DNA of 41,906 nucleotides from the sequence record MN850624.1. The stretch is one strand, 5' to 3'. Source of the DNA: Escherichia phage usur. The position numbers were made by a program, and so were the translations under genes. Of this stretch, positions 2,304 to 41,330 are shown piece after piece (position 1 is the first letter of the stretch; the number at the start of each line of letters is the position of its first letter). The notes under the pieces were generated by a model that was given only the letters and a program-made list of their open reading frames with translations, searched no databases and was not told the DNA's origin.

Positions 2304-4063
2304 TATCTAATTCTCCGTCGCGTACCGCGTACAGGCTTGTGGCTGCGCCATTTCGGGTCATCGTACCCCATAGGGTTGGCGATGAACTCTTTGGCCACAG
2401 CGACTGCACGGCGCTCCGCTTCTTCGTTTTCGTCTTGCTGCAACACCTCGGCGTGGAGGTACACGGCAGCGGCTAAGGTTTCAATTCGGTCATCGTGTGG
2501 GATGGATTGACGGTCTTGAGTCAGGTTCTGGAGCTGCCAGAACAGGCTGTACTCACGGCCACCGTTGGCCATACCCCGGCATAACCGCAGGTCTTCTTCA
2601 ACAACGCTCCAGTGGATAACCACACGGTGGCGCTGCATGATTGGGCCGAGGCGGTTGATGATACGCACCTCTTTCTGGCCGGACGAGTACACACCCTCGC
2701 AGCCCATGGTCAGCTTCTGCCGCTTAATCTCACCTCGGTACATGTTGGTCACGGTGCCGTGGCCCATGTTGTCCTCAATGACGAGACGTTTGCAGCCCAA
2801 CTCACCTAACCACGACACCGCCGTCTGGATGTTTTCCTCCGTCTGGCCGCCGTGGTAGACGTGCATACCAAGGACGTGGATAAACGGGCCGATAGAAGCG
2901 GTGACGATGATAACTGATTCATCCGACCCACCACCAGCAGGGTCAAGAAACGCCGAGGCATTTTCGAATGGTACATAAGTGTCCGAGAAATCAGCAGCCA
3001 AGAATAGCTGCGCACGAGCGAGTGGGAAATCCAGTGGCAGCTCGGCGGCGTGCCGTGGGTGATTCGACCAATGCAAGACTTCCGGCGCGGAGATAGGCGA
3101 GCCGTGGAAGAAGATTAAGTCCTTGAGATGCAAGGTCTGTTTGAGAGCATCCGACAGAGAAGTGTCCAGCATGAACTGCAACTGGAAGCCTGCCTGCTGG
3201 TAGTCTCGTTCGTTCTGCAACTGCTTTTCTTCGGAGTAGCGTTGCGGGTCGGTCTGCGCACCACGGTTCCCAAGGATACCGTAGCCTGTGCGAAGTTCCG
3301 GGTGGCCCTCCATCTTCTGCTTAATCCACGGGGCCAGACAGCCGCCGTAGCGTTCTTCTTCCTCAACCGTTGGGAAACGACCGGGCCAGATGCGAACGTC
3401 GAAGCCACGCTGCGGGAGCGTGTTGTAGATGGAGTCCTGAGTCTGTGGCGTGCCGAGGTACAGAATCTCTGCACCATCGTTGGCGATAGCCGCGAACTCT
3501 TTGGTCAGGGTGTTGATACGGGCGCGGTTGGCAGGAGAGCTACCGTTACTGGTAGTCTCCACGTCATCGGCAATCAACAGCGATACGTGGTTCCCCTGCA
3601 ACTGGCCGAAGATACCGACCGCTTTTACAGAGGGTTGTTTGTCAGGGATACGGAATGCGTGATGCACGTCGAAGCCATCGGTGTACGATGTACGTGCGCC
3701 AGCGCGAGTCTCCGGGCGTAACCATTCCAACCTGTCCCATTGCATGATAGCCGACACGATAGCGTGCGACAGCGTACCAGCATAGTCGTCGGAACCGGAT
3801 ACGAGCAGGACAGTGGCGTTCGGCATCTGCACAAATTCGTACAGAGCACGGGCAATGCCGATGGTGGACTTAGCCTCACCACGCTGCGCCATGACGCACT
3901 TGTTCTTGAGCGTCCGGTCGGCCATGTAGCGGCCAATGTCGAGCTGCATTTCAGTGAGGTCAAAGCCCAGCCATGCGAAGTAGTCATGCAGGAACAGCGG
4001 GAAGTTGTTCTCGTAGTGAGCGCGAACGATTCCTGCCATCACCATGCGGCGTTGTAAATCCAT
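2303..4063 (-). CDS. terminase large subunit (DNA maturase B)
   Basis: 586 aa, the same length class as T7 gp19; position after the small subunit and tailspike as in phiKMV-like phages. Confidence 0.85.
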   Translation of the reverse strand: MDLQRRMVMAGIVRAHYENNFPLFLHDYFAWLGFDLTEMQLDIGRYMADRTLKNKCVMAQRGEAKSTIGIARALYEFVQMPNATVLLVSGSDDYAGTLSHAIVSAIMQWDRLEWLRPETRAGARTSYTDGFDVHHAFRIPDKQPSVKAVGIFGQLQGNHVSLLIADDVETTSNGSSPANRARINTLTKEFAAIANDGAEILYLGTPQTQDSIYNTLPQRGFDVRIWPGRFPTVEEEERYGGCLAPWIKQKMEGHPELRTGYGILGNRGAQTDPQRYSEEKQLQNERDYQQAGFQLQFMLDTSLSDALKQTLHLKDLIFFHGSPISAPEVLHWSNHPRHAAELPLDFPLARAQLFLAADFSDTYVPFENASAFLDPAGGGSDESVIIVTASIGPFIHVLGMHVYHGGQTEENIQTAVSWLGELGCKRLVIEDNMGHGTVTNMYRGEIKRQKLTMGCEGVYSSGQKEVRIINRLGPIMQRHRVVIHWSVVEEDLRLCRGMANGGREYSLFWQLQNLTQDRQSIPHDDRIETLAAAVYLHAEVLQQDENEEAERRAVAVAKEFIANPMGYDDPKWRSHKPVRGTRRRIR

Positions 4064-4368
4064 TAGTGCATCATCCCGCTATCTTCTGCGATTGAGTTGA
4101 TGGCAGCAGTCATGATATCCTTACGGCCAGCCTCGGTCTTCTCGTTGTTGAGCTGTTCTTGCAGCGCGAGCAGGTCGTCGGCGTGGTCTTTATCAGCCTG
4201 AATGCCGTTGTCTTTCAGGAACTGGCGAAGCACAGACAGCTCAGCCGCCGCCATAGGTTCGATGATATTACCGTTCTCATCTTTTCTACGTGCGTCGGCC
4301 AAGCGGTCGGACAGATACTCCACCAGCATCCGGTGCAGCCCGTCGAGCTGCTTGTTCACGGATGCCAT
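4063..4368 (-). CDS. terminase small subunit (DNA maturase A)
   Basis: 101 aa charged helical protein immediately upstream of and overlapping the large-subunit start. Confidence 0.6.
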   Translation of the reverse strand: MASVNKQLDGLHRMLVEYLSDRLADARRKDENGNIIEPMAAAELSVLRQFLKDNGIQADKDHADDLLALQEQLNNEKTEAGRKDIMTAAINSIAEDSGMMH

Positions 4369-4377
4369 GGTTTCTCC

Positions 4378-6750
4378 TTAGATATAAGTGACCGGGTACG
4401 TCGCGGCAAGCTGAGTCCCAGCAGGGATAGCCGTAACGAGCGCCGGGGTAATGTCGATGCGTACCGGGTTCCCGATGTTGTTGTCCACCTGATAAGGCGC
4501 ACGAACCACCGTAACCGTCAGTGGCGCACCACCAGCGCCAGCGCCCGGCACCTGTAGACGAGTACCAGCCGAGATAGGCTTATGGTACAGCCACGAGGTG
4601 GAAGCCTGAGTACCAGCCGGAGTCAGGTTCTGCTCAAGATACGTCTGGCCAGCGGCAGCAGCACGCACCTTGAAGTTGTTCCCATCATCCGGGATATACG
4701 CACCGAAGCCTGTCACGATGAAGTTGCCACCTGAGCCGTCAGTCTTAAACAGCACCGTCCCCTCGCAGAACTCTTTACCAGTCGGGAACTCCCCACCAGT
4801 CAGGGTTGCAAGGTTATTCGGTAGCGTGTACATGCGGTTGACCGGAGACAGGATGACGCCTACGTTACCTTGGATGTTGGTGTACGGGATAGCACGCACG
4901 TTGGAGTTCAGCGTGCTGATATCCGAGTAGCGAGCCTTACTGTACAGCGCACCCTCAGTCATGCCCTCGCCGTAGAAGTTCACGTTCACCATGTTGAGAA
5001 CAGTCTTCTTGCGCGGGTACAGACCGTTGGATGAAGTGCCGCCGCTGGAGTCATCGCCCACAGCATCGAACACCACCCCGGTCACGTTGGTCATATTCAG
5101 CAGCGTTGCCACGCCGAACAGACTCATCGTATGACAGTGGATGTTTTCCAGATGGTACGTGTTGTTGTTCACGTCATCAGAGCCAACGCCAGCATAGAAG
5201 CGTCCGGTACGGGTCTGCACGTTGCGCACAGTCATGTCAAACGAAGGACATGCCGCGCCCGGCGTACCGCCTGCACCTGCTTGGTTCGCACCCCACTCCA
5301 GCATAACGAGACGAATCGCGTTAGGAGAAGTTGCGCCAGTGTTGATTGGCTCACCAGCCACGCCATCAATGGTCATTCGCTTGCAGCCGTAGGTGATTAC
5401 ACCTGCCGCCGTCAGGCCAGTGCCAGTTGACACAGCGAGGTCAGGGTTACAGAACACGTTCTCACACACGCTGTCGCGGGTAACTTCGAAGTGGACAACC
5501 TGACGCACGCCACGCGGAGCATGGACGTTACGGACTACCACGTTCTTGGCGTACTGCGTTTCAGCAGCATCCCAACCGAACGGGCCTTGGCCAGCAATAC
5601 CAATGCCGATACCCCAGTTGGACAGGGGGATAGGAGCGGTCGTACCGTCGAGGTCTTCAAGGTAGATGTTCTCAATCAGCAGGCCACCATCATAGTGCTT
5701 GTTGATTACGTTCATCTCAATGCCGTCACCCAGCATGTTCATCATAGCGATGTTGCGGATAACGCCGTTCTCGATAGCCTCACCCGTACCCTGCTGGAGA
5801 ATACCGAACTTGCCATTGCGGTGGATACCGTTCTCAATGACGTAGCTGCCCCCGGCGATGTTACCTTGGAACAGGATGCTCGCTACCTTGGAGTTCGATG
5901 GCGCACCAGTGAACTCGTAATCGGAGATGCGAACCTTGCCACCCCAGTAACAGACACGGACAGTGGAGGCTTTGAAGTCACGGAACGTGGAATCCAGCAG
6001 CCGGATATCAGCCGTACCGTTCCAAGTGCCGCCGACAACCTCGATACCGTCCATCAGGACAGTGGAGTTGACAGTACCGACCCAGCCACGGGCATCCACA
6101 GTCTTAGCGTTAGCCTTGGCATAGTCGAAGCACGCTTGTACCGCAGCGGCGATAGAGGCGTACCCGGTGTTGTTGGTGAACTCTGACAGGCATACGGTAT
6201 CCTGACGGTCAAGGAACGTACCGCCGCCCAGTGTACCAATCCACTTACCGCCGTCAGCCATTGCCAAAGCAATCGCCAGTGCGGAGTCAGGGATATCAAC
6301 CAGAGGAATCATGAACGGCTGGCCATTGCTGTCAAAGCCCAGTGCCTTGTTGCGGCGGCCAGCGACGTTCGGTAATGCGTTGATGGAGACTTCGGAGTTT
6401 GGGACACGGACGGCGCGGTCAAGCGGCGCGAGCCATGCTTCCTGAGTTTCCTCAGCCTTGAACAGAATCTGCTCGAAGTTCTCGTCGAGGTTGCTGCCCG
6501 TAAAGGCAGCGTCCTGTCCGAACTTGTTCAGCAGAGTCTCAGAGGTGTAGCGTTGCAAACGGACAATCACCCCGGCAAGCGGGGCGGTGTCAAAGACAAT
6601 CTGTTTGGTCACAGAGTTGTAGGTGTACCCGCTCGTCTGGAGTTCGGAGTTGAGGTACACCTGAATCTGTGTGAACACGCGCTGCTCAAACGTAACGAGG
6701 AACGCGGTCTGCGAGCCGTTCGCCACGTAAGTGTTGTAGCTGTTCGCCAT
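4378..6750 (-). CDS. tail fibre/tailspike with T7 gp17-like N-terminal adaptor and beta-helix depolymerase domain
   Basis: 790 aa; N-terminus 'MANSYNTYVANGSQTAFLVTFEQ...' resembles the T7 gp17 N-terminal domain; central region is Gly/Asn/Thr/Val-rich in a way typical of pectate-lyase-like right-handed beta-helices. Confidence 0.75.
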   Translation of the reverse strand: MANSYNTYVANGSQTAFLVTFEQRVFTQIQVYLNSELQTSGYTYNSVTKQIVFDTAPLAGVIVRLQRYTSETLLNKFGQDAAFTGSNLDENFEQILFKAEETQEAWLAPLDRAVRVPNSEVSINALPNVAGRRNKALGFDSNGQPFMIPLVDIPDSALAIALAMADGGKWIGTLGGGTFLDRQDTVCLSEFTNNTGYASIAAAVQACFDYAKANAKTVDARGWVGTVNSTVLMDGIEVVGGTWNGTADIRLLDSTFRDFKASTVRVCYWGGKVRISDYEFTGAPSNSKVASILFQGNIAGGSYVIENGIHRNGKFGILQQGTGEAIENGVIRNIAMMNMLGDGIEMNVINKHYDGGLLIENIYLEDLDGTTAPIPLSNWGIGIGIAGQGPFGWDAAETQYAKNVVVRNVHAPRGVRQVVHFEVTRDSVCENVFCNPDLAVSTGTGLTAAGVITYGCKRMTIDGVAGEPINTGATSPNAIRLVMLEWGANQAGAGGTPGAACPSFDMTVRNVQTRTGRFYAGVGSDDVNNNTYHLENIHCHTMSLFGVATLLNMTNVTGVVFDAVGDDSSGGTSSNGLYPRKKTVLNMVNVNFYGEGMTEGALYSKARYSDISTLNSNVRAIPYTNIQGNVGVILSPVNRMYTLPNNLATLTGGEFPTGKEFCEGTVLFKTDGSGGNFIVTGFGAYIPDDGNNFKVRAAAAGQTYLEQNLTPAGTQASTSWLYHKPISAGTRLQVPGAGAGGAPLTVTVVRAPYQVDNNIGNPVRIDITPALVTAIPAGTQLAATYPVTYI

Positions 6751-21110: not shown

Positions 21111-21139
21111 AAATAGTCAAAGAATACAGTACCTTATTA
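21088..21139 (-). promoter_or_regulatory. conserved element A, candidate phage-RNAP promoter (late)
   Basis: Minus strand reads TAAGGTACTGTATTCTTTGACTATTTATGAAAGCTACTATAGTGATAG; the core CTACTATAG resembles the T7/SP6/K11 promoter core CACTATAG. Starts at the RNAP stop codon; followed by a GC stem-loop (GCCCCGTCAGTGGCGGGG) and a strong RBS. Confidence 0.4.
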
Positions 21140-23569
21140 ACAGAAGAATTTGGTAGATTCTTTGACAAGATTTATGTCCAAGCTGCCCTTAGCTGGAGCC
21201 TCACGATTATACGCTTTGGCAAGCTGTTGAATTGGGTCATGTTGCTCATACATCTGCACGAACTTTTCACGGATGACTTTGTGCAGTAACCCTGCATGAG
21301 CAGCAGCAACACCGAATGAGTCATGGATGGATACCATGTAAACCCCGTTATTCCACATCTCCCACAGCACGCGCATCATGTGGCTGGCGTCCATGGCGTG
21401 TACGAAATTCGGAGCAATCGCAGCCGCACACTTACGTCCGTCAGGCTTATCCAGATACTCCCTCAGTTTAATCTGATGGACACCCATGAGGTGCAGGTGC
21501 ATCGGGGATTCCTTGGACGCTTGGTACAGGTTCGGCACCCGCAAACCGGATGGTGCAATAATCTCCACGTACTCGCCCATGCTCGCAGCTTCCAGCGCGA
21601 TAGCCTGCAACCATGCCATAAGCTCAGCAGCTTTCGGCACAACGCGAGGGATAGCGTTCCACATGAACTCAGCAATGAACTGCGCACACTCCAGCAGGGT
21701 CTTCCCTTCCGGCAGCTTGACGCGGTTCTCACGCAGGTACAGGCAGTAGTAATCCACCATGCCGTGCCGGGTTGCCCCGTACACGTAGGTCATCACTGGC
21801 TTCTTCGCCATCGCCCGAACAATGCCGATGGACACCAGCCAAGCACCCATTGGCGTCGGCGTGACTGCCTCACTTTCTTCAAGAGCCTGCATCGCCGCTG
21901 CTGCCGTCTTAAGATAGATGTCTGCTTTGCGTCCCACGCTATTGATAAGATTGACAGCAGCACCTCCAACCTCATCTCGTAGCATCGCACTGAGGTGCTG
22001 GAGTCCTGAACATGTAGCGTCCCATTGCGTAACCACTCGGCAGGGATAAGTCTCAGGACTTCCTGAGTCGATAGCTCGAATGAGTTCAACAGAAGCAGCC
22101 CACGCTGAGATAGGGCTATCGGCCTCTGACCAGAACGAATCAAATGCCTCTGGAAGACGGCACGCCTCACGTAATCGGGGGAGTGTTTTGTCCGTCCACG
22201 CTGCCCGGTCTTCGAAGTCTGTGGCGTCGTATCCAAAACAATTCGCAACATGTACCTTGAGCCAGAACAGCCCCTCGTTTCCGAGAGCCACTGGTTCAGC
22301 AAGTTCGAGCAGCGCTCGCACCGCGTCGATGGACTGAGGGTTAAGGGTCGAAGAATAATAAATTCGGCCCCGCGTATCGGCGTAAGTCGGGAGATAAATC
22401 CTATCGTACTGGGCATAGCGCTCGGCCTCTTTGACTGCGCCGTTCAGTGCCAGCATCTGCGACGTGAACTTACGCAACTCATTGTAATACAAGCGAGTCT
22501 TCACCTTGTACTCATGAGCTTCCGCATCCATCTGCTGCTGCATTTCCGGTGGGAACTTGCTGATGTACTGGGCGAAGCTGACGCCTGCCGGGATAGTGAA
22601 TGGGAGCTTAGGCTCACGGGGCGGCACAGGCAGCCCCATAATGCCTGTACGGTTCGTTCGCAGGAACTCCAGTACCATTGGGTTAACTCGGTACGGAACG
22701 CTGCTGAGCATCATACACGGCTCTATAACGGGGGTCGGGTCAACGCCCAGCGCACGATACCCTTTGTGGTTCATGCGACTGATAACCCGGTACATTGCTG
22801 ACTGCCCCGGCGAGTGCCACATACCACTGCGACCGTTCGGAGCAATCTGCGCTGGCGGTACAATAAGCGGTGGGCAGCACATGCCATCGGCACGCGGCAT
22901 ATCCAGCCAGTCATTCATTGTGGCCAGCACATCTTCGTGCAGGGCGAAGTGCGCAGTACCGCGCTGACGGTGGTTGCCGCCGACGCGGATAGTGCAGACC
23001 AGACCAGTTGGCTCAACGCACTGCATCATCAGCTTGCCCATGGTGATGAGCGCACGCTGAGGCAGGATATCAATCTCTACCCCAACATTGGCTGCCGACG
23101 CTTTGGCTTTGTTGTAAGCATGGTTCGCTGACTTGGTGCGTGACTTCTTCACGTCAGCCTTAACCTTCTCCATGTACGCCGCGCCGACTGGCCCTGACTT
23201 CTTCGCACGCTGGTACACCACCTCAGCCATGAGCGCCTTACCCATGTCTTTCAGCAGATTCAGTACCGCCTGCTCCGACGCTGCACCGGACACCGCCATG
23301 CTGAGCGCCAGCGACGAACACGCCTTGACGCCCAGCTCACGCATAAATGTCCGGTACTGCGCACCAGCACCACGGGTCGTTTCATTCAGGAGGTCTTGCA
23401 TCGCAGCTTCAACTTGAGGGAAAGCCTCAACCATCATACGTTGGAGCAACGGCACCGACCCTGCCCGGCCAGCGGCCATGGCATCTTTGATATTGTCCAG
23501 CCAGCCCTCGCGGTGTCTGGCTCGCGCTTCTTCTTCAAGTCGAATCTGCTCAGCAAGTAAGTCCATCAT
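21137..23569 (-). CDS. single-subunit DNA-dependent RNA polymerase (T7-like)
   Basis: 810 aa; '[20 protein letters not shown]' (T7 '[20 protein letters not shown]'), '[14 protein letters not shown]' and 'SIHDSFGV' match T7 RNAP catalytic motifs. Confidence 0.92.
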   Translation of the reverse strand: [810 protein letters not shown]

Positions 23570-27695: not shown

Positions 27696-28583
27696 TTACA
27701 GGCTAGGCAAACCGAAGTCAGCGTCGCCAGTCACGTCCGGTTCTTTCTTGCTGTCGGCTTCACCCTTCACCGGAAGCTCAGCGACTTCCTGCTTAACTTC
27801 CTTCACTTCCTCCGGCTGGCCTACATCACCCAGCTCCGGCAGCTCAGCGATGGCAGAGCCAGCGCCAGCACCATTGAGCAGCAGGTCAAGAGGTGAGCCG
27901 GGGAACTCAGGAGACTCAAGCAGCTTGTCCTGAATCCAGTTCTTGGATTTGCCATCGTCGTTCTTGCCGTCGATGTACAGCGATTCCCAGTCTTCCTTGG
28001 TCGGACGGTTCCACAGGAACAGCTTGAACAGCGTCTCGTCTTCGACTTCCGGCACCGGGTACGGCTGGTCAGTTACCGGGTCAACAGCGAGCATGATGTT
28101 CTCAAGGTCGATGTTCGCATACACCTTCTTGTTCTCACCCTCGCCAGATTCATTGTGGGTAATCGGAACGATGAAGGTGTGGTTCAGCAACTGCGCGAAG
28201 TGCTTCGCAGTCTTGTCCGGGTTCATGCGCTTGAACAGTTTGTAAGCGCCGGACTTACTGTTCAGGTCTTTCTTCACAGCGATGAACTGCGTGCGAACTT
28301 TGCCCGGCACCATCTTACCATTGACAACTTCATGGTAAGTCTCGCCGTTCTTGGCCTTGCCCCACAGTGCGAACTGGAGGAAGAACTTATTGACTGGCGG
28401 TTTGTCCGGTGCCTGCTTAGTGGCGTGTGGCCCCACCTCAACGTAGCCAACCAGACGGGCCAGCGCCTTACCTTCCGGCAGGAGCTTACCACCACCAGAC
28501 GTGGCTTCGTTAAAGTCAAGTTCTTCCTCGTCAACATACTGTTCGACGATGGAGTTCATGCGGTTCAATACTGATGCGGTCAT
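27696..28583 (-). CDS. hypothetical protein with acidic C-terminal tail; possible ssDNA-binding/replisome protein
   Basis: 295 aa between polymerase and exonuclease; C-terminus 'EEVKEVKQEVAELPVKGEADSKKEPDVTGDADFGLPSL' is acidic with a penultimate aromatic residue, reminiscent of SSB-type tails. Confidence 0.4.
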   Translation of the reverse strand: MTASVLNRMNSIVEQYVDEEELDFNEATSGGGKLLPEGKALARLVGYVEVGPHATKQAPDKPPVNKFFLQFALWGKAKNGETYHEVVNGKMVPGKVRTQFIAVKKDLNSKSGAYKLFKRMNPDKTAKHFAQLLNHTFIVPITHNESGEGENKKVYANIDLENIMLAVDPVTDQPYPVPEVEDETLFKLFLWNRPTKEDWESLYIDGKNDDGKSKNWIQDKLLESPEFPGSPLDLLLNGAGAGSAIAELPELGDVGQPEEVKEVKQEVAELPVKGEADSKKEPDVTGDADFGLPSL

Positions 28584-31069
28584 ATGCTAATACCCTTACT
28601 CGTCAGGAAGTTACGTTTGAACTCCAGCACTTCTTCGGCTGTCGTCTCTACGTGATGCTTTTCGTACATGCTTGGCCCAGCTTCTACCTCTGCCGGAAAC
28701 GGAACTGTCAGGTTATATTCAGGCCAGATGTGGTTGTAGTATTCCGGGATGGATTCCATGATTGCCTTGAGTCCAACGAAGAACTCGTGAGGGCAGTCAG
28801 GTGCCACGTCGAAATAGAATGCGTCATGCACTTGGTTGATGGGAACCACACGCCCACCAAAGAAGTCATTGGCCAGCAGCCAGCGGAACAGCAGCCCACC
28901 AATTCCCTGTACCCAAAACGCTGTCTCACCCTGAATAGGATAGTTACGCATTTGAGTTGGTTTGTATTCCATCAGATAAGCACGCGCCGCCTTGTTCCAT
29001 TTCTCGTACTGACGGAATGAATAACAAGTTCCACCCGGCGAGCGGAAGTGACCACGGCGATACACCTGCCACCGTCCGTTCTCATCTTGTTCCTTGAACA
29101 CGTTGCTCTGTCCACTACGCTCAACGGCGGGGAAGATTACAGCGTCGAACCATTCTTCAACTTCCGGGAACAGACCCTTCTCGTTGTCGATGAACGCCTG
29201 TGCTTCTTCCTCCGAGCAACCAGTCGAGTAGGCAATGCCTCGCGCTGTTGCACCATACTGATAGGAGAACGCCTTTGGCTTAATGTCAGTACGCATCTGA
29301 CTGTATCGTGCATGGTCAGGATGGGTTTCATCCTTGCACTTCTTAAGCACGTCCTCGTATGGCTCATTGAGTTGAGCAGACAATCGCATACAGTGCATGT
29401 CGATACCATCGAGCAATGCACGAATCAGGTTCTTATCCTTACTGAACCCGGCCAGCCCCACCACTTCCAGTGCCGAGTAGTCAGCCTCAACGATGCGGCC
29501 ACCTTCACCAAAGCGGGAGGTGAACATCTGCTTAACTTTACTCGTACCTTTACGCGGCAGGTTCTGGCTGTTCGGTCGCTGAGATGACAGTCGCGTCGTC
29601 TCAGTCGCGGTCATGTTGATGGTGTGGTGTACGATGCTGTCCGGCTGGATGAACTGCATCATCCCCGACTGGCCAGTCACGTTGCCATCCTCATCAAACG
29701 TCTCGCTGAGGTAGTAGGTGCCGAGGTCTTTCTGCGCCTTGGCCCGGTCAGCAATCTCCACGACGCCGGGAATCTTACGAGCTGCCAGAATGTCCAGCAC
29801 CTCACCCGCCGTACTGAATACAGGAGAACCGTCAGCCAGCTTGCGCTTACCTACCCAGTCACCAGTGCGCCGGAGATATTCACCCGGACGCTTCGGGTCT
29901 TCCCACTCAAGGTTGTCGGCAATCTCCCGCGCTCGTCTGTCCTGCACACGCAGCAGACCGGGCAGCCGGAACAGTACCTCACCCCACTTGGTGTCCACCT
30001 CATCGGTCGCCAGCTTCTCAAACTTCGGCTCGCCTTTGTGCTTGCCGCTGGAGTAGATAGTCTGGTGTACCTTCTCAACCGGGTCGTACCATAACCCAGT
30101 CTCGTCATCCCATACGCATTCGCTGGTATGCTTGAGCCACTTGTCCTTGCCACGCTTGAACAGTGGTGCATCCACCTTCACGTAAATGAGATTGCCATCC
30201 CCATCTCGGCGCTCGACTCGCGCCTTGTACTTCATCACGCCGCCGAACACGAACGCGCTCATGTGATATGCAGACGTGAACTTGAATTGCTCACGCGCTT
30301 CACTCGGCATGTCGGCAGGCAGGTAGCCAAGCAGTGTCTCGGTCAGCCCACTGATTGCATCCTGTAACTCACGGCGGTTACGCTCTGCTACCTCGCGGTC
30401 AACATGCAGACCGGAGTGCATCATGTACGCCCACATGAGCATACCTTCGAACCGGGTCAGTGCCATCTGCAACATGCCCTGCTTCGTCAGCTCTGCCCAC
30501 TGACCAACGAACAGCTTGGTCGTGTTCTCAATATCCCCGGACGGCCCGGACAGATACTCGCTCAGCAGCTCAGCGTCAATCTGGCTGGTCAGATAACCTG
30601 ACTCCCACATTGCCTTGACTGCATCCACCTTGTGAGTACCACCATACTTCGGTGCTGTCTCGTTCAAGGATGGGTACTGGGATTGCTGGTGTGTCAGCAG
30701 ATACTCAGCATACGCGGTACAGAATACGCGGCCACCTCGTAAGAGGAACGCCGTGAACTCGTCACCGTAATGCTCGAACCACCAGCTCAGTTCATACGGA
30801 GCGTTGTGTGCAACCAGTATGTTCGTATCCGGGTGGAGGTGCAGGCTCTTGTTGGCCAGCCAATCCTCACGGGATGCGTACCGATATTCCTCACGCTTGT
30901 AGAACTCCCAGCCATCCTTGGTCAGCACACAGTCGCGCTGTCCCTGCATCACCACGTAGTTGTCAGGGCAGCGCGGCGATGCCAGCTCCCCATACCACTC
31001 ATGGTTCTCAGTTTCAACGTCGATAATCTGTGCTCGAATAGCCATCAATCCCCCGCTATGCTTTGCCAC
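28580..31069 (-). CDS. DNA polymerase, family A, with 3'-5' exonuclease domain
   Basis: 829 aa; 'IIDVETE' (exo I), 'DYSALEVV' (motif A), 'KAFSYQYGATA' (motif B), 'QVHDAFYFD' (motif C). Confidence 0.9.
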   Translation of the reverse strand: MAKHSGGLMAIRAQIIDVETENHEWYGELASPRCPDNYVVMQGQRDCVLTKDGWEFYKREEYRYASREDWLANKSLHLHPDTNILVAHNAPYELSWWFEHYGDEFTAFLLRGGRVFCTAYAEYLLTHQQSQYPSLNETAPKYGGTHKVDAVKAMWESGYLTSQIDAELLSEYLSGPSGDIENTTKLFVGQWAELTKQGMLQMALTRFEGMLMWAYMMHSGLHVDREVAERNRRELQDAISGLTETLLGYLPADMPSEAREQFKFTSAYHMSAFVFGGVMKYKARVERRDGDGNLIYVKVDAPLFKRGKDKWLKHTSECVWDDETGLWYDPVEKVHQTIYSSGKHKGEPKFEKLATDEVDTKWGEVLFRLPGLLRVQDRRAREIADNLEWEDPKRPGEYLRRTGDWVGKRKLADGSPVFSTAGEVLDILAARKIPGVVEIADRAKAQKDLGTYYLSETFDEDGNVTGQSGMMQFIQPDSIVHHTINMTATETTRLSSQRPNSQNLPRKGTSKVKQMFTSRFGEGGRIVEADYSALEVVGLAGFSKDKNLIRALLDGIDMHCMRLSAQLNEPYEDVLKKCKDETHPDHARYSQMRTDIKPKAFSYQYGATARGIAYSTGCSEEEAQAFIDNEKGLFPEVEEWFDAVIFPAVERSGQSNVFKEQDENGRWQVYRRGHFRSPGGTCYSFRQYEKWNKAARAYLMEYKPTQMRNYPIQGETAFWVQGIGGLLFRWLLANDFFGGRVVPINQVHDAFYFDVAPDCPHEFFVGLKAIMESIPEYYNHIWPEYNLTVPFPAEVEAGPSMYEKHHVETTAEEVLEFKRNFLTSKGISI

Positions 31070-36844: not shown

Positions 36845-37090
36845 TCACACTTCAATAGTCCCGGCCAGTTCATACGGGCCGAAGCGATTGATGACAGCCT
36901 GCGACTTGACATGCGTGCGGTTAGCTTCGAAGCCTGCACGCTTGGTGGTTGCGATGCGCTGCACATCAGCCAGTGTCTCAGCCGCCGCGCCATTCATTGC
37001 AATCACATCGACCGGGGCTACAATCTCCTGCCCTTCCGGTACGATAGTCCAGTCACCTTCGCCGTCTTTGTATACGTCATACTTAGCCAT
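36845..37090 (-). CDS. hypothetical early protein
   Basis: 81 aa; preceded by GAGAGGCAAGC-ATG. Confidence 0.5.
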   Translation of the reverse strand: MAKYDVYKDGEGDWTIVPEGQEIVAPVDVIAMNGAAAETLADVQRIATTKRAGFEANRTHVKSQAVINRFGPYELAGTIEV

Positions 37091-37148: not shown

Positions 37149-37400
37149 TTACTCGACGAACTTGAATGACTTACCTTCATGGTAGTCAATGTGTGCGCCA
37201 GCTAAGTCACCCACTTCATCACGGAAACTGACCGAGCGCTTGTCAACTTCATCCCCTTCGGCGTCCACCTCGCCCGGTTCGAGGATGAGTACATCGTACT
37301 CTTTACCCTCGACGGTATCGAGGAACGGACAGAAGGTGCCGAACGGAGTAGGACGGCCATAGTCGTTGCGCAGAATTACAATCTTAGCTTGAGTGCTCAT
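37149..37400 (-). CDS. hypothetical early protein
   Basis: 83 aa from ATG 37400 with RBS GAGG. Confidence 0.5.
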   Translation of the reverse strand: MSTQAKIVILRNDYGRPTPFGTFCPFLDTVEGKEYDVLILEPGEVDAEGDEVDKRSVSFRDEVGDLAGAHIDYHEGKSFKFVE

Positions 37401-37726: not shown

Positions 37727-38065
37727 TTAACCCTCGTTGTCTACGCCAAAGAGATACATCTCCCCTTCGTAGATTGTTGTGAGAGCATAAAGCCATGCCT
37801 TGAACAGCAGCGAACCATCAGCATTGATGTGCTGGTCATTCATCAGGTCGATGATGAACGGTCTGCCCCCGGCGTATGCCTTGCAGCGCTCAATGATTTG
37901 CTCATCGGTGGCATCAGCAATCAGCATGTGCTCACCCATGATTTCAATCTGGTCAATGATGACCAGCCCCTCCTGACCGGACGGCAAGCGGTACTGCAAT
38001 GCAGCAATCTCTTGCCCGTCTTCGAAGTCAGGCCCACGCATTACCTTCACTCGATGTAGTGCCAT
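37727..38065 (-). CDS. hypothetical early protein
   Basis: 112 aa; RBS GAGAGGGGAGC before the ATG. Confidence 0.5.
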   Translation of the reverse strand: MALHRVKVMRGPDFEDGQEIAALQYRLPSGQEGLVIIDQIEIMGEHMLIADATDEQIIERCKAYAGGRPFIIDLMNDQHINADGSLLFKAWLYALTTIYEGEMYLFGVDNEG

Positions 38066-38129: not shown

Positions 38130-38303
38130 TTACAACTTCCACAACCATAGCAGGTTGGTGCTGATACCAACGGCTATTGCTGCGGTGGTTGGCAGGAAAT
38201 AAGCAGCAGCCAGTCCAGCGCTTATGCTTACCTTAAGGATGATGGCCGTCTCCCAGTGCCGACGCTCCATACCCTTGACCCGTTGTAACAGATTAATGTT
38301 CAT
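38130..38303 (-). CDS. possible small membrane protein (57 aa, not in ORF track)
   Basis: Hand translation: MNINLLQRVKGMERRHWETAIILKVSISAGLAAAYFLPTTAAIAVGISTNLLWLWKL; hydrophobic C-terminal two-thirds. Lies in an otherwise unassigned 390-bp gap. Confidence 0.3.
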   Translation of the reverse strand: MNINLLQRVKGMERRHWETAIILKVSISAGLAAAYFLPTTAAIAVGISTNLLWLWKL

Positions 38304-38456
38304 TGCCCAGCGACGGCGCTTCGTCTACCTTATCACCAGCGATGAATGCCAGACCGCCGTTGCTCAGGGAATACACGTTGATTGTAGCCATGGTAAATCT
38401 CCAGTTAGGTTGGGCATGATTGCCGCACTGCCCCGTCGCAACGAGGCAGTAAGGTA

Positions 38457-38792
38457 TCACGCAGAGAAGTCCACGTCATCGTCGTCGCTGTCCTGCTCGT
38501 ACTCAGCGATGACTTCGATGGTCGCTTCTTTCAGGTTGTCAGGGCTGACGAATGCCAGACCTTCGAACATGGCAACCAGTTGCAGCGGCAGCGCTAGCGG
38601 CAGGTTGTCTTCGTGGAAGTGCGCTTTCACATCTTCCGCGCTGTCACCACCAGTCGGGCCAACAACCAGTGCGCCCGGTTCGCCGTCACGCTGGAAGCCA
38701 ACGAAGGTCTGCGGTTGCAGTTCTGCCACGTCATCAGCGTCGAAAGCGTCAGCAGCGATGTTAGAAATCAGTACCAGTTTCAGTGTAGACAT
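38457..38792 (-). CDS. highly acidic small early protein; candidate DNA mimic
   Basis: 111 aa from ATG 38792 (RBS GAGGA); roughly 25 Asp/Glu against ~5 Lys/Arg; C-terminus 'EYEQDSDDDDVDFSA'. Confidence 0.55.
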   Translation of the reverse strand: MSTLKLVLISNIAADAFDADDVAELQPQTFVGFQRDGEPGALVVGPTGGDSAEDVKAHFHEDNLPLALPLQLVAMFEGLAFVSPDNLKEATIEVIAEYEQDSDDDDVDFSA

Positions 38793-38865
38793 AGGATTAA
38801 TCCTCAGATTGGAATAAGGCAGTATTGCCACGCTGCACCCTCGCAAGGATGCAGCAGGACAACGC

Positions 38866-39150
38866 TTATTCGTCGTCTACGTCAGCTTCGAAGCTGCCGA
38901 TACCCTGAATGGTCAGGTCATCGCCGTGACGCAGTTGCAGGTCATCTTCCGTCTGGCCAGCCAGCATACAGATGATTTCGTGCGGCAGCGGAATGCCTTT
39001 CAGCGTTTCCAGAATGCCATCGTGGTCGGTCGGTTCACCTTCTTCACGAACGTGGTGCAGGTAGTTGTGGCCGCCGTCGATAGACACAGCATAGCCGTAC
39101 ACTTCTTCGCCTTTCTTGGTGACGTAGGCCAGAACAGTTTTAGTGGTCAT
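38866..39150 (-). CDS. highly acidic small early protein; candidate DNA mimic
   Basis: 94 aa from ATG 39150 (RBS GGAG); roughly 20 Asp/Glu against ~6 Lys/Arg; C-terminus 'GSFEADVDDE'. The ORF-track start at 39219 is TTG. Confidence 0.55.
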   Translation of the reverse strand: MTTKTVLAYVTKKGEEVYGYAVSIDGGHNYLHHVREEGEPTDHDGILETLKGIPLPHEIICMLAGQTEDDLQLRHGDDLTIQGIGSFEADVDDE

Positions 39151-39225
39151 GGATGATACTCCGTAATTGTTGGGGCAGAATTGCCATAAAGCCAGCGCCT
39201 TGACACTGGCTTGAGTCAATCCCGC

Positions 39226-39753
39226 TTACGCAGCTTTCAGCTTGCGCAGGCCGTCCAGCACGTTCTGAGGCACGACAACCTTGTTCGCATCCTCATCGCG
39301 CCCTTCATGGCGCAGCTCGTTCGCCTTGTTCATTGCCTTTTCAGCTTTGGCAATCAGCTTTTCGAGCGCATCTTGCAGGTCGAAGCCATCAAAGGCCGCT
39401 TCTGGCTTGCAAGTCCACCACATCGTGGCTTTCGCCTTGTCGATGTTCTCTTTGATGAAGTCAGCACCCTTCCAGCCAACGAAGCCGGACTTGCCATCTT
39501 CATGCTCACCCACAATCAGGCCGCCGAACTGGACGAACCAGTCAACCAGTGCCTTACCACGGACGCCATCACCCAGTTGGTGAGTGAACGACTCAGCACG
39601 AGTGTAGTCGCCGTGATGGTAAGCGTGCAGGATAATACCGACCGCAACGTTCTGAATATCGTTACGGAGTGAGTGCGCCTTTTTGACAGTCGCTTCGATA
39701 GCTTTGTCCAGCGCCGCAGCATCTTTGAATGCAGTATATTTAACAGTAGTCAT
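39226..39753 (-). CDS. hypothetical early protein
   Basis: 175 aa; RBS GAGGTG before the ATG. Confidence 0.55.
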   Translation of the reverse strand: MTTVKYTAFKDAAALDKAIEATVKKAHSLRNDIQNVAVGIILHAYHHGDYTRAESFTHQLGDGVRGKALVDWFVQFGGLIVGEHEDGKSGFVGWKGADFIKENIDKAKATMWWTCKPEAAFDGFDLQDALEKLIAKAEKAMNKANELRHEGRDEDANKVVVPQNVLDGLRKLKAA

Positions 39754-39975
39754 GATACACCTCGTCGGGTTGTTGGTTGGTTACTTCACAATGCGCCTCG
39801 CAAGACGCATTAGGCAGTCACCATAATTTGGGACGAGTCAACCAGTAAATCCACAAGCCTGCAAAGACAAACCAGAACAACGCTACCAGTAAGTCCCACA
39901 TATCAGGCTCGCTTAGACAGGCGCTGGTCAATCAGCCAGCACGCCGCCGCTATCACACAGAGTGCAGTGAACATA

Positions 39976-40368
39976 TTACGCCTCCACTACCCAAAATTGC
40001 TCACCATCGTAAGTCCAAGCAGTGAACTGCCCGGCTTCCATCTCCGCTTCTGTCTTGCTGACAAACTTGCCAGCAGGCTTGCCCGGATATGGTGAATCCA
40101 TGAAGATTGCATCATTGTCATCGATCACTACCATGATGCAGTCCTGTTCAAAGGCTTTACAGAACAGCTTAACAGCCTGTCTGATTTCGTAGATTCCATC
40201 GACAGGAAAGACCATGCTTAACTCATACGCATTGTCGAATTTGCCTGTCAGTGTGACCGGAATCACTCCGAACATATCCTGCACCGTTCGCAGTGCCTTG
40301 CAATGAAGCGCCAGATTAACACACTCAGCATTGTTCTGGCGGTATGCGCTTGCATAGATACGGTACAT
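39976..40368 (-). CDS. hypothetical protein, first early gene
   Basis: 130 aa; RBS GGAGAAA 6 nt before ATG 40368; first ORF downstream of the tandem sigma70-like promoters. Confidence 0.55.
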   Translation of the reverse strand: MYRIYASAYRQNNAECVNLALHCKALRTVQDMFGVIPVTLTGKFDNAYELSMVFPVDGIYEIRQAVKLFCKAFEQDCIMVVIDDNDAIFMDSPYPGKPAGKFVSKTEAEMEAGQFTAWTYDGEQFWVVEA

Positions 40369-41229: not shown

Positions 41230-41330
41230 ATAAGTTACTGTAATCATTAGGAATAAATATTTGATTGAATAGGTTATTGCATAGGATAGATACCGATATC
41301 AGATAGGTTATAAGTTACTGTAATCATTAG
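41230..41330. repeat. two perfect 20-bp direct repeats (TAAGTTACTGTAATCATTAG) 81 bp apart in an AT-rich segment
   Basis: Exact copies at 41230-41249 and 41311-41330; the second copy forms the 5' part of element C. Confidence 0.8.

Follow-up and report, generated by a model that had tools for sequence, protein, structure and literature searches.

What do two small, strongly acidic proteins, encoded side by side among the first genes of a coliphage, do for the phage that carries them? The question is raised by Escherichia phage usur (sequence record MN850624.1), in which two adjacent early genes, here called A and B, encode proteins of 111 and 94 aa. A first-pass annotation of the window, meaning the whole stretch of 41,906 nucleotides that was analysed, read the two products as candidate DNA mimics comparable to the anti-restriction protein Ocr of phage T7, and supposed that two such proteins in tandem have distinct targets, for example restriction-modification (R-M) and BREX-type systems.

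The early region of usur and its two most acidic genes

The window is a complete or near-complete genome of a Bonnellvirus (Autographiviridae), with all genes on the minus strand. Its layout is phiKMV-like: the early region lies at the right end of the window and is followed downstream by primase and helicase, DNA polymerase, RNA polymerase and then the structural genes. Between positions 37000 and 41000, usur shares 97-99% identity with Escherichia phages glasur and forsur. Read along the minus strand from the right end, the main features are the following:

41092-41064, 40955-40927 and 40875-40847, minus strand: promoter-like TTGACA-N17-TGTAAT in three direct repeats ahead of the SAM lyase gene (read from the sequence)
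39976-40368, minus strand: S-adenosylmethionine (SAM) lyase of the T3 SAMase type, first early gene (Pfam PF23780, S-AdoMet_lyase, E 1.9e-26)
39226-39753, minus strand: conserved gp2-like early protein of 175 aa, directly upstream of B (phrog_1448, a family with no functional annotation)
38866-39150, minus strand: gene B, 94 aa, ATG start, GGAG 9 nt upstream
38457-38792 including the stop codon, minus strand: gene A, 111 aa, ATG start, GAGGA 9 nt upstream
28580-31069, minus strand: DNA polymerase gene
21137-23569, minus strand: RNA polymerase gene

The SAM lyase is annotated as anti-restriction in the records of relatives. B and A are the third and fourth early genes, behind the promoter-like repeats, the SAM lyase and the gp2-like gene and far upstream of the genes for DNA and RNA polymerase, which bears out the early position assigned to them in the first pass. 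A sigma-70 consensus scan made no call at the three repeats because their -10 hexamer carries an unusual G at position 2; judged by their sequence, they are likely early promoters of the host RNA polymerase.

The surroundings of these genes hold three further features. Upstream of the promoter-like repeats, the non-coding leader contains two exact copies of the 20-mer TAATGATTACAGTAACTTAT, 80 bp apart (41230-41249 and 41310-41329, minus strand), for which the chance expectation is 0. The end of the genome (41370-41906) is GC-rich and filled with short repeats of the CTGCG/GTGCTG type, with spurious open reading frames only; it is probably part of a terminal-repeat or packaging region, and the record of phage J8-65 has an annotated terminal repeat of 259 bp. 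Lastly, the 222-nt stretch from the SAM lyase to gp2 (39754-39975, minus strand) differs by one substitution from glasur and is conserved in phage LF82-23. It holds two tiny hydrophobic open reading frames, MFTALCVIAAACWLIDQRLSKRA and MWDLLVALFWFVFAGLWIYWLTRPKLW, which the annotations of relatives lack and which, from their sequence, may encode small membrane peptides.

The starts of A and B, corrected in the first pass to give 111 and 94 aa, agree with the annotated orthologues glasur_4 (112 aa) for A, and glasur_3 and forsur_31 (94 aa) for B; longer, TTG-initiated versions of both open reading frames were rejected, as they would read through a conserved intergenic RNA element described below. 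With 15 Asp, 9 Glu, 3 Lys and 1 Arg (24 D/E against 4 K/R), A has a net charge of -20 and a pI of 4.05; B, with 10 Asp, 10 Glu, 4 Lys and 2 Arg (20 D/E against 6 K/R), has a net charge of -14 and a pI of 4.48. Asp and Glu make up ~21% of either protein. The initial estimate of four to five times as many acidic as basic residues holds only as an average of the two, the individual ratios being 6.0 for A and 3.3 for B. The Asp-rich C-termini are as first quoted, ...EQDSDDDDVDFSA in A and ...FEADVDDE in B.

None of the other usur proteins, 48 in all with A and B, is as acidic as these two, whose net charge per residue is -0.18 and -0.15 (z = -3.3 and -2.7), with binomial probabilities for their acidic content of 2.6e-3 and 6.8e-3. 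The four most acidic proteins of this set are all early. The third and fourth, encoded on the minus strand at 37727-38065 (112 aa, net -11) and 37149-37400 (83 aa, net -9), have no sequence kinship to A or B, and their genes are without the GGCAAT box of the RNA element described below.

Judged by substitution patterns, A and B are real genes under purifying but relatively relaxed selection, since comparison with orthologues gives dN/dS values of 0.15-0.33 (B) and 0.20-0.48 (A), with dS up to ~1.2. Together with the SD sequences at 9 nt, this range of 0.15-0.48 vindicates the original call of two adjacent, strongly acidic minus-strand genes. Their divergence is fast: between usur and LF82-23, amino-acid identity is 92% for the SAM lyase and 85% for gp2, against 64% for B and 40% for A. 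What is kept is the charge. All 37 family sequences examined are net negative (-6 to -20), and most individual acidic positions vary. A conserved motif, DD[VI]DFxA, stands at the C-terminus of A, and a related one, D-x-x-DF(E/A), in C1-type proteins (products of another array gene, see below); the tail motif is absent from the A-orthologues of phages J8-65 and Lidtsur and from all B proteins.

The acidic gene array and its RNA element

In most relatives of usur, the SAM lyase and gp2 genes are followed by five small acidic genes in the order B-A-C1-E-C2, each product having a net charge of -7 to -20. Other orders are A-B'-B-E in J8-65, A-B-A'-C-C in Lidtsur and A-C-B in one metagenomic contig. 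Set beside these gene orders, A and B are best described as surviving cassettes of a lineage-specific modular acidic early array whose full form is B-A-C1-E-C2. The step from a tandem pair to a pair of distinct targets is thereby weakened: the two genes are indeed adjacent, but the pair is the remnant of a five-gene array. The losses are recorded at three loci:

38293-38391 of usur, minus strand: C1 remnant, a 32-aa open reading frame in which the first 29 codons of C1 run on into the final codons of a gp9-like gene (mapped against glasur)
5508-5726 of the forsur locus: site of the deletion in A, with GATGACGTGG repeats
4656-5186 of the locus of Pantoea phage ROV85: in-frame fusion of gp2 (1-118) to C1 (36-93), with B and A gone

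Compared with glasur, usur has lost ~1.1 kb (C1, E, C2, gp8 and gp9) between two copies of the 7-bp sequence GCTGGGC, and it carries B and A only because this deletion took the genes from C1 to gp9. In forsur, ~99% identical to usur in this region, an in-frame 258-bp deletion inside A between two GATGACGTGG copies has left a 26-codon stub. With the fusion of ROV85, this makes three independent microhomology deletions of array genes, all in viable phages, and each cassette is therefore dispensable on the isolation host. The array genes are individually dispensable on laboratory or isolation hosts (E. coli K-12), and the region that contains them is a gene-loss hotspot. Both forsur, which lacks A, and usur, which lacks C1, E and C2, were isolated on the EcoKI-positive MG1655.

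An observation of a related kind concerns J8-65 gp7 (J8-65 locus 4005-4418), a fusion whose first ~43 residues are like the N-terminus of the A-like Lidtsur gp5 and whose remainder is a conserved gp14-like protein. By its sequence, this gene too arose by recombination, at the border of the array.

Each cassette comes with a conserved non-coding element, present in three copies in usur:

39151-39225, minus strand: element upstream of B, with hairpin at ~39212-39189, GGCAATTCTGCC box at 39185-39174, CA-rich spacer and SD
38793-38865, minus strand: element upstream of A, with hairpin at ~38855-38832, GGCAATACTGCC box at 38829-38818, spacer and SD
38392-38456, minus strand: third element, between A and the truncated C1, with hairpin at ~38450-38427 and GGCAATCATGCC box at 38424-38413

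Every gene of type A, B, C or D has the same bipartite element in front of it. The first part, a GC-rich hairpin of 8-11 bp, begins right behind the stop codon of the preceding gene and is followed, 1-3 nt further in most copies and ~14 nt further in two, by an invariant GGCAAT-N3-GCC box; this box is itself a 4-bp mini-hairpin, and the CA-rich spacer and the SD come next. RNA fold z-scores are -3.6 for the element of B (-29.5 kcal/mol), -4.0 for that of A and -2.7 for the third one, and compensatory changes are seen in 10 of the 14 hairpin pairs among 18 elements. There are exactly three copies of the box in the 41.9 kb of usur (upstream of B, of A and of the truncated C1), for an expectation of 0.5, and one to four in each of 13 related loci, always inside the array and always on the coding strand.

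Several roles can be envisaged for this element. The spacing and hexamers of the GGCAAT box do not fit a sigma-54 or sigma-70 promoter, and a promoter for the phage RNA polymerase is unlikely, the box being absent from the rest of the genome. The hairpin and box may instead serve for processing of the RNase III type, stabilise the mRNA or act as a translational operator. In the early mRNA of T7, RNase III processing hairpins lie between early genes, and the usur array is comparable in having stable, irregular and covarying hairpins between consecutive polycistronic early genes, at which cleavage is putative. It departs from the T7 arrangement in two respects: the Bonnellvirus element adds the invariant GGCAAT-N3-GCC mini-hairpin and belongs to no Rfam family (an Rfam search of the early region gave no match), and the usur elements are confined to the front of A-, B- and C-type cassettes and do not separate every pair of early genes.

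The element also bears on the history of the array. One and the same variant is found after gp2 in usur, but after B in J8-65 and Lidtsur; this difference in array position suggests that recombination at the hairpin and box elements shuffles the cassettes. The sharing of an upstream element favours a common descent of the genes as cassettes or their origin by cassette duplication.

Family boundaries and predicted structures

Neither A nor B belongs to a family in Pfam, PHROGs, PADLOC or NCBIfam, and searches of the same four resources gave no family match for 30 related array proteins or for the other array proteins. In a Pfam-A scan with E values up to 1, A had no match and B only sub-threshold ones to DUF3759 and DUF7695; no enzymatic or other domain was detected in either protein. 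The earlier statement that the two do not resemble Ocr in sequence is confirmed: the Ocr profile (Pfam PF08684) matched neither A, B nor any of the 30 array members, and a PDB search with the family sequence profile returned chance matches only, at E values of at least 0.06 and without an Ocr chain. ArdA, ArdB and KlcA, anti-restriction proteins usually encoded on plasmids or conjugative elements, gave no Pfam or NCBIfam match to A or B, and no match to either protein was found by tblastn in 72,556 plasmids.

The homologues that do exist are confined to one group of phages. A search of 5.8 billion proteins retrieved five clusters for A and nine for B, and tblastn located A and B in 16-17 phage records, every one a bonnellvirus. 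A HMMER scan of 1.84 billion representatives with the family profile recovered nine family clusters and nothing else credible; two further matches were discarded as spurious long repeat-containing proteins, the one that was checked resembling a plant PPR-type repeat protein. As far as these sequence searches reach, the family is restricted to Bonnellvirus-like phages. Orthologues of A share 84-96% identity, and divergent ones 30-40%; for B the corresponding ranges are 64-100% in Bonnellviruses and 23-34%. A literature search found neither functional work on Bonnellvirus early genes nor a publication on A or B.

Profile comparisons link the divergent members to their families, with hhalign E values of 3.5e-6 for A against Lidtsur gp5 and 3.3e-6 for B against J8-65 gp4. 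Relationships between the families are less firm. With enriched profiles, B and C align at E 8e-5 (61% probability) over the C-terminal 34 columns, and A-B and A-C reach 8e-3 and 4e-3, no better than the best unrelated or reversed control (4e-3). The paralogy of A and B indicated by a first hhalign run (E 2e-3) and by pairwise BLAST (1e-3) did not rise above noise with better profiles and controls, and it is therefore unproven. Foldseek did not link the models of A and B; these models share the order of their secondary-structure elements, but both were built from the same mixed alignment. A single A/B/C superfamily is possible.

The AlphaFold2 (AF2) model of B (pLDDT 79.9, pTM 0.66) predicts an alpha/beta protein with strands at residues 2-13, 16-23 and 30-34, helices at 43-51, 58-64 and 68-75, a fourth strand at 79-91 and then the DVDDE tail. 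It superposes on BFVD models of orthologues with TM scores of 0.90 at 66% identity and 0.64-0.67 at 23% identity. The model of A, built on a shallow alignment of close A homologues with B- and C-type sequences, is of low confidence (pLDDT 60.7, and <50 for residues 102-111, the C-terminal tail, which on this prediction is probably disordered); in topology it nevertheless matches the BFVD models made independently for orthologues (TM 0.70-0.81, and 0.70-0.79 for those at 31-40% identity). As modelled, the fold of the A/B family is unmatched in the PDB. It has no likeness to any known DNA mimic and differs from the Ocr fold, an elongated helical dimer.

Decoys, takeover factors and other readings

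A and B are probably dispensable host-interference proteins. Their closest known counterparts, namely Ocr, other acidic mimics and the accessory genes of coliphages, are functional analogues and not relatives. A large share of the characterised small, highly acidic phage early proteins act as nucleic-acid decoys or mimics. Examples are T7 gp5.9, T4 Arn, PBS Ugi and phi29 p56, lambda Gam, and AcrIIA4 and AcrIF2, which have 50-140 aa, a pI of ~4, early expression and one host DNA-binding target each, and which share no fold. A and B are similar to them in size, in pI (~4-4.5) and in early position, and their smallness, acidity and low pI (4.05 and 4.48) give them the size and charge of the DNA-mimic class. 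With T7 Ocr (gp0.3), they have in common that they are small early autographivirus proteins encoded near the leading genome end and dispensable on permissive hosts, and their acid:base bias is comparable: 34:6 in the 116 aa of Ocr (PMC3439906), 24:4 in the 111 aa of A and 20:6 in the 94 aa of B. Mutagenesis of Ocr has established that antirestriction activity does not need the full charge bias (PMC3439906). A and B differ from Ocr and ArdA in being members of neither family. Mimic proteins diverge in sequence and fold (PMC3902945), and because they share no common fold, the mismatch of A and B with known mimic folds neither supports nor refutes mimicry.

The pattern of occurrence points in a related direction. 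Coliphage accessory genes have been described in one preprint as small, fast-evolving and variably present, and most of them as likely antagonists of host defences or other viruses (bioRxiv 10.1101/2023.04.06.535777, Silas et al.). A and B share with them variable presence, an early and leading-end position and rapid divergence, and the Bonnellvirus array likewise varies in presence and absence among near-identical genomes; it differs in that its cassettes are related to one another and have a conserved RNA element of their own. The preprint does not report any Bonnellvirus protein (0 matches for 'J8-65'). The fast divergence and repeated natural loss of the array genes fit accessory counter-defence genes.

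The reading that we favour is that the anionic surface or tail of A and B fills the nucleic-acid-binding sites of host proteins, as a decoy or mimic, and we put its probability at roughly 40%. It is preferred on account of the Ocr-like composition, of the mimic precedents, of the accessory, arms-race pattern and of the nine EcoKI sites that the usur genome holds, for eight expected, and thus without avoidance. Right after DNA entry, the host RNA polymerase would transcribe the early genes from the promoter-like repeats, as is assumed from phiKMV-type biology. Each array protein would then bind one host protein stoichiometrically and neutralise it by filling its nucleic-acid-binding site with a negatively charged surface and tail. 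The most plausible targets are defence or DNA-metabolism factors that bind DNA or RNA, and they would differ from cassette to cassette. The hairpin and the GGCAAT-N3-GCC box would provide a common post-transcriptional processing or control of each cassette and would also supply the homology for cassette shuffling.

Several considerations weigh against the decoy reading. The first is that composition is a weak discriminator, acidity being widespread in the early proteome. The first-pass annotation took the composition of A and B as a match to DNA mimics; their size, D/E content (~21%) and pI are indeed in range, but because several other usur early proteins are also highly acidic, the acidity points less specifically to mimicry. 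The second is that usur already possesses a SAM lyase whose family is annotated as anti-restriction. Further, dispensability has been observed on laboratory or isolation hosts only, and the model of A is of low confidence. A more ambitious version, which we regard as unlikely, extends the decoy idea to the whole array (B, A, C1, C2 and their variants) as a system not recognised before: a recombination-shuffled battery of decoys with folds that have no PDB match, each duplicated along with its own RNA control element and each tuned to a different nucleic-acid-binding host defence, would form a modular anti-defence 'cassette island', gaining and losing genes as the host requires.

The rival that survives best, itself rather on the doubtful side, holds that A and B are host-takeover factors acting through ordinary protein-protein interfaces, their acidity being incidental or a general trait of the early proteome. 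They would bind housekeeping proteins of the host, to inhibit or redirect them, with RNA polymerase or sigma, FtsZ or MreB, proteins of the nucleoid, and proteases or RNases as candidates. Phages of the phiKMV and T7 types have many small early ORFans with host-takeover roles; A and B are early in position, many usur early proteins are acidic whatever their family, and a homologue of a known host-RNAP shut-off factor was not detected in the early region, all of which suits such a role. One paper deals with small early phage ORFans of this kind (PMC7552054). The loss of A and B in viable relatives means, however, that they are not essential takeover functions, and an identity of 40% for A beside 85-92% for its neighbours fits an arms race better than conserved housekeeping partners.

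That A and B form an Ocr-like pair, one protein blocking Type I R-M and the other BREX as first proposed, now appears improbable. The composition is near the 34:6 of Ocr, the nine EcoKI sites imply that protection is needed when the DNA is unmodified, and Ocr itself is reported to block Type I R-M and BREX alike. Against this stand the lack of homology or fold match to Ocr or ArdA, the origin of the 'pair' as what is left of five genes, and the isolation of both forsur without A and usur without C1, E and C2 on an EcoKI-positive host. Moreover, the SAM lyase encoded nearby is a member of the T3 SAMase family, which already counters Type I R-M as well as BREX.

An equally slender chance attaches to a decoy acting through its tail, in which the acidic C-terminus with its conserved aromatic residue (DD[VI]DFxA in A, D-x-x-DF(E/A) in C1) would imitate SSB-type tails and compete with them for basic pockets in the nucleases and helicases that interact with SSB, or attach to the replisome of the phage itself. 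The conserved motif does lie in the low-pLDDT C-terminus of A and recurs in C1-type proteins, and acidic C-terminal tails to which it can be likened, with imperfect resemblance, are the SSB tip (DDDIPF) and those of T7 gp2.5 and gp4. The Phe of the A and C1 motif is not C-terminal, however, while the SSB tip needs a terminal Phe carboxylate, and neither the J8-65 and Lidtsur A-orthologues nor any B protein carries the motif.

Finally, the notion that A and B are spurious or non-functional open reading frames, acidic by chance, which could be entertained given the lack of a database family and the frequent deletion of the genes, is in effect refuted by the way in which the genes are conserved: at dS values of up to ~1.2, dN/dS stays well below 1, the proteins are conserved across the genus and in metagenomic relatives (23-40% identity) with their predicted folds, SDs are correctly spaced, and a dedicated conserved element precedes each gene.

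Part of this picture is familiar, as acidic early ORFans are common and mimicry is the standard guess for them. What is new is the set of uncharacterised acidic early accessory proteins with a predicted fold unmatched in the PDB, carried on cassettes that have a dedicated RNA element. The near-isogenic natural variants, namely glasur with the full array, forsur without A and usur without C1 to gp9, ease testing, and the combination of a modular array, a specific RNA element and natural knock-outs makes for a tractable system. Should A and B prove to be ordinary early ORFans instead, a modular, deletion-prone accessory region of a coliphage genus that has been little studied will nonetheless have been cleanly described. 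If they are decoys, the phage nucleic-acid mimics and anti-defence proteins, of which few are listed so far, would gain at least one new fold and possibly new targets. The cassette-specific RNA element would serve as a sequence handle with which further genes of this kind can be found.
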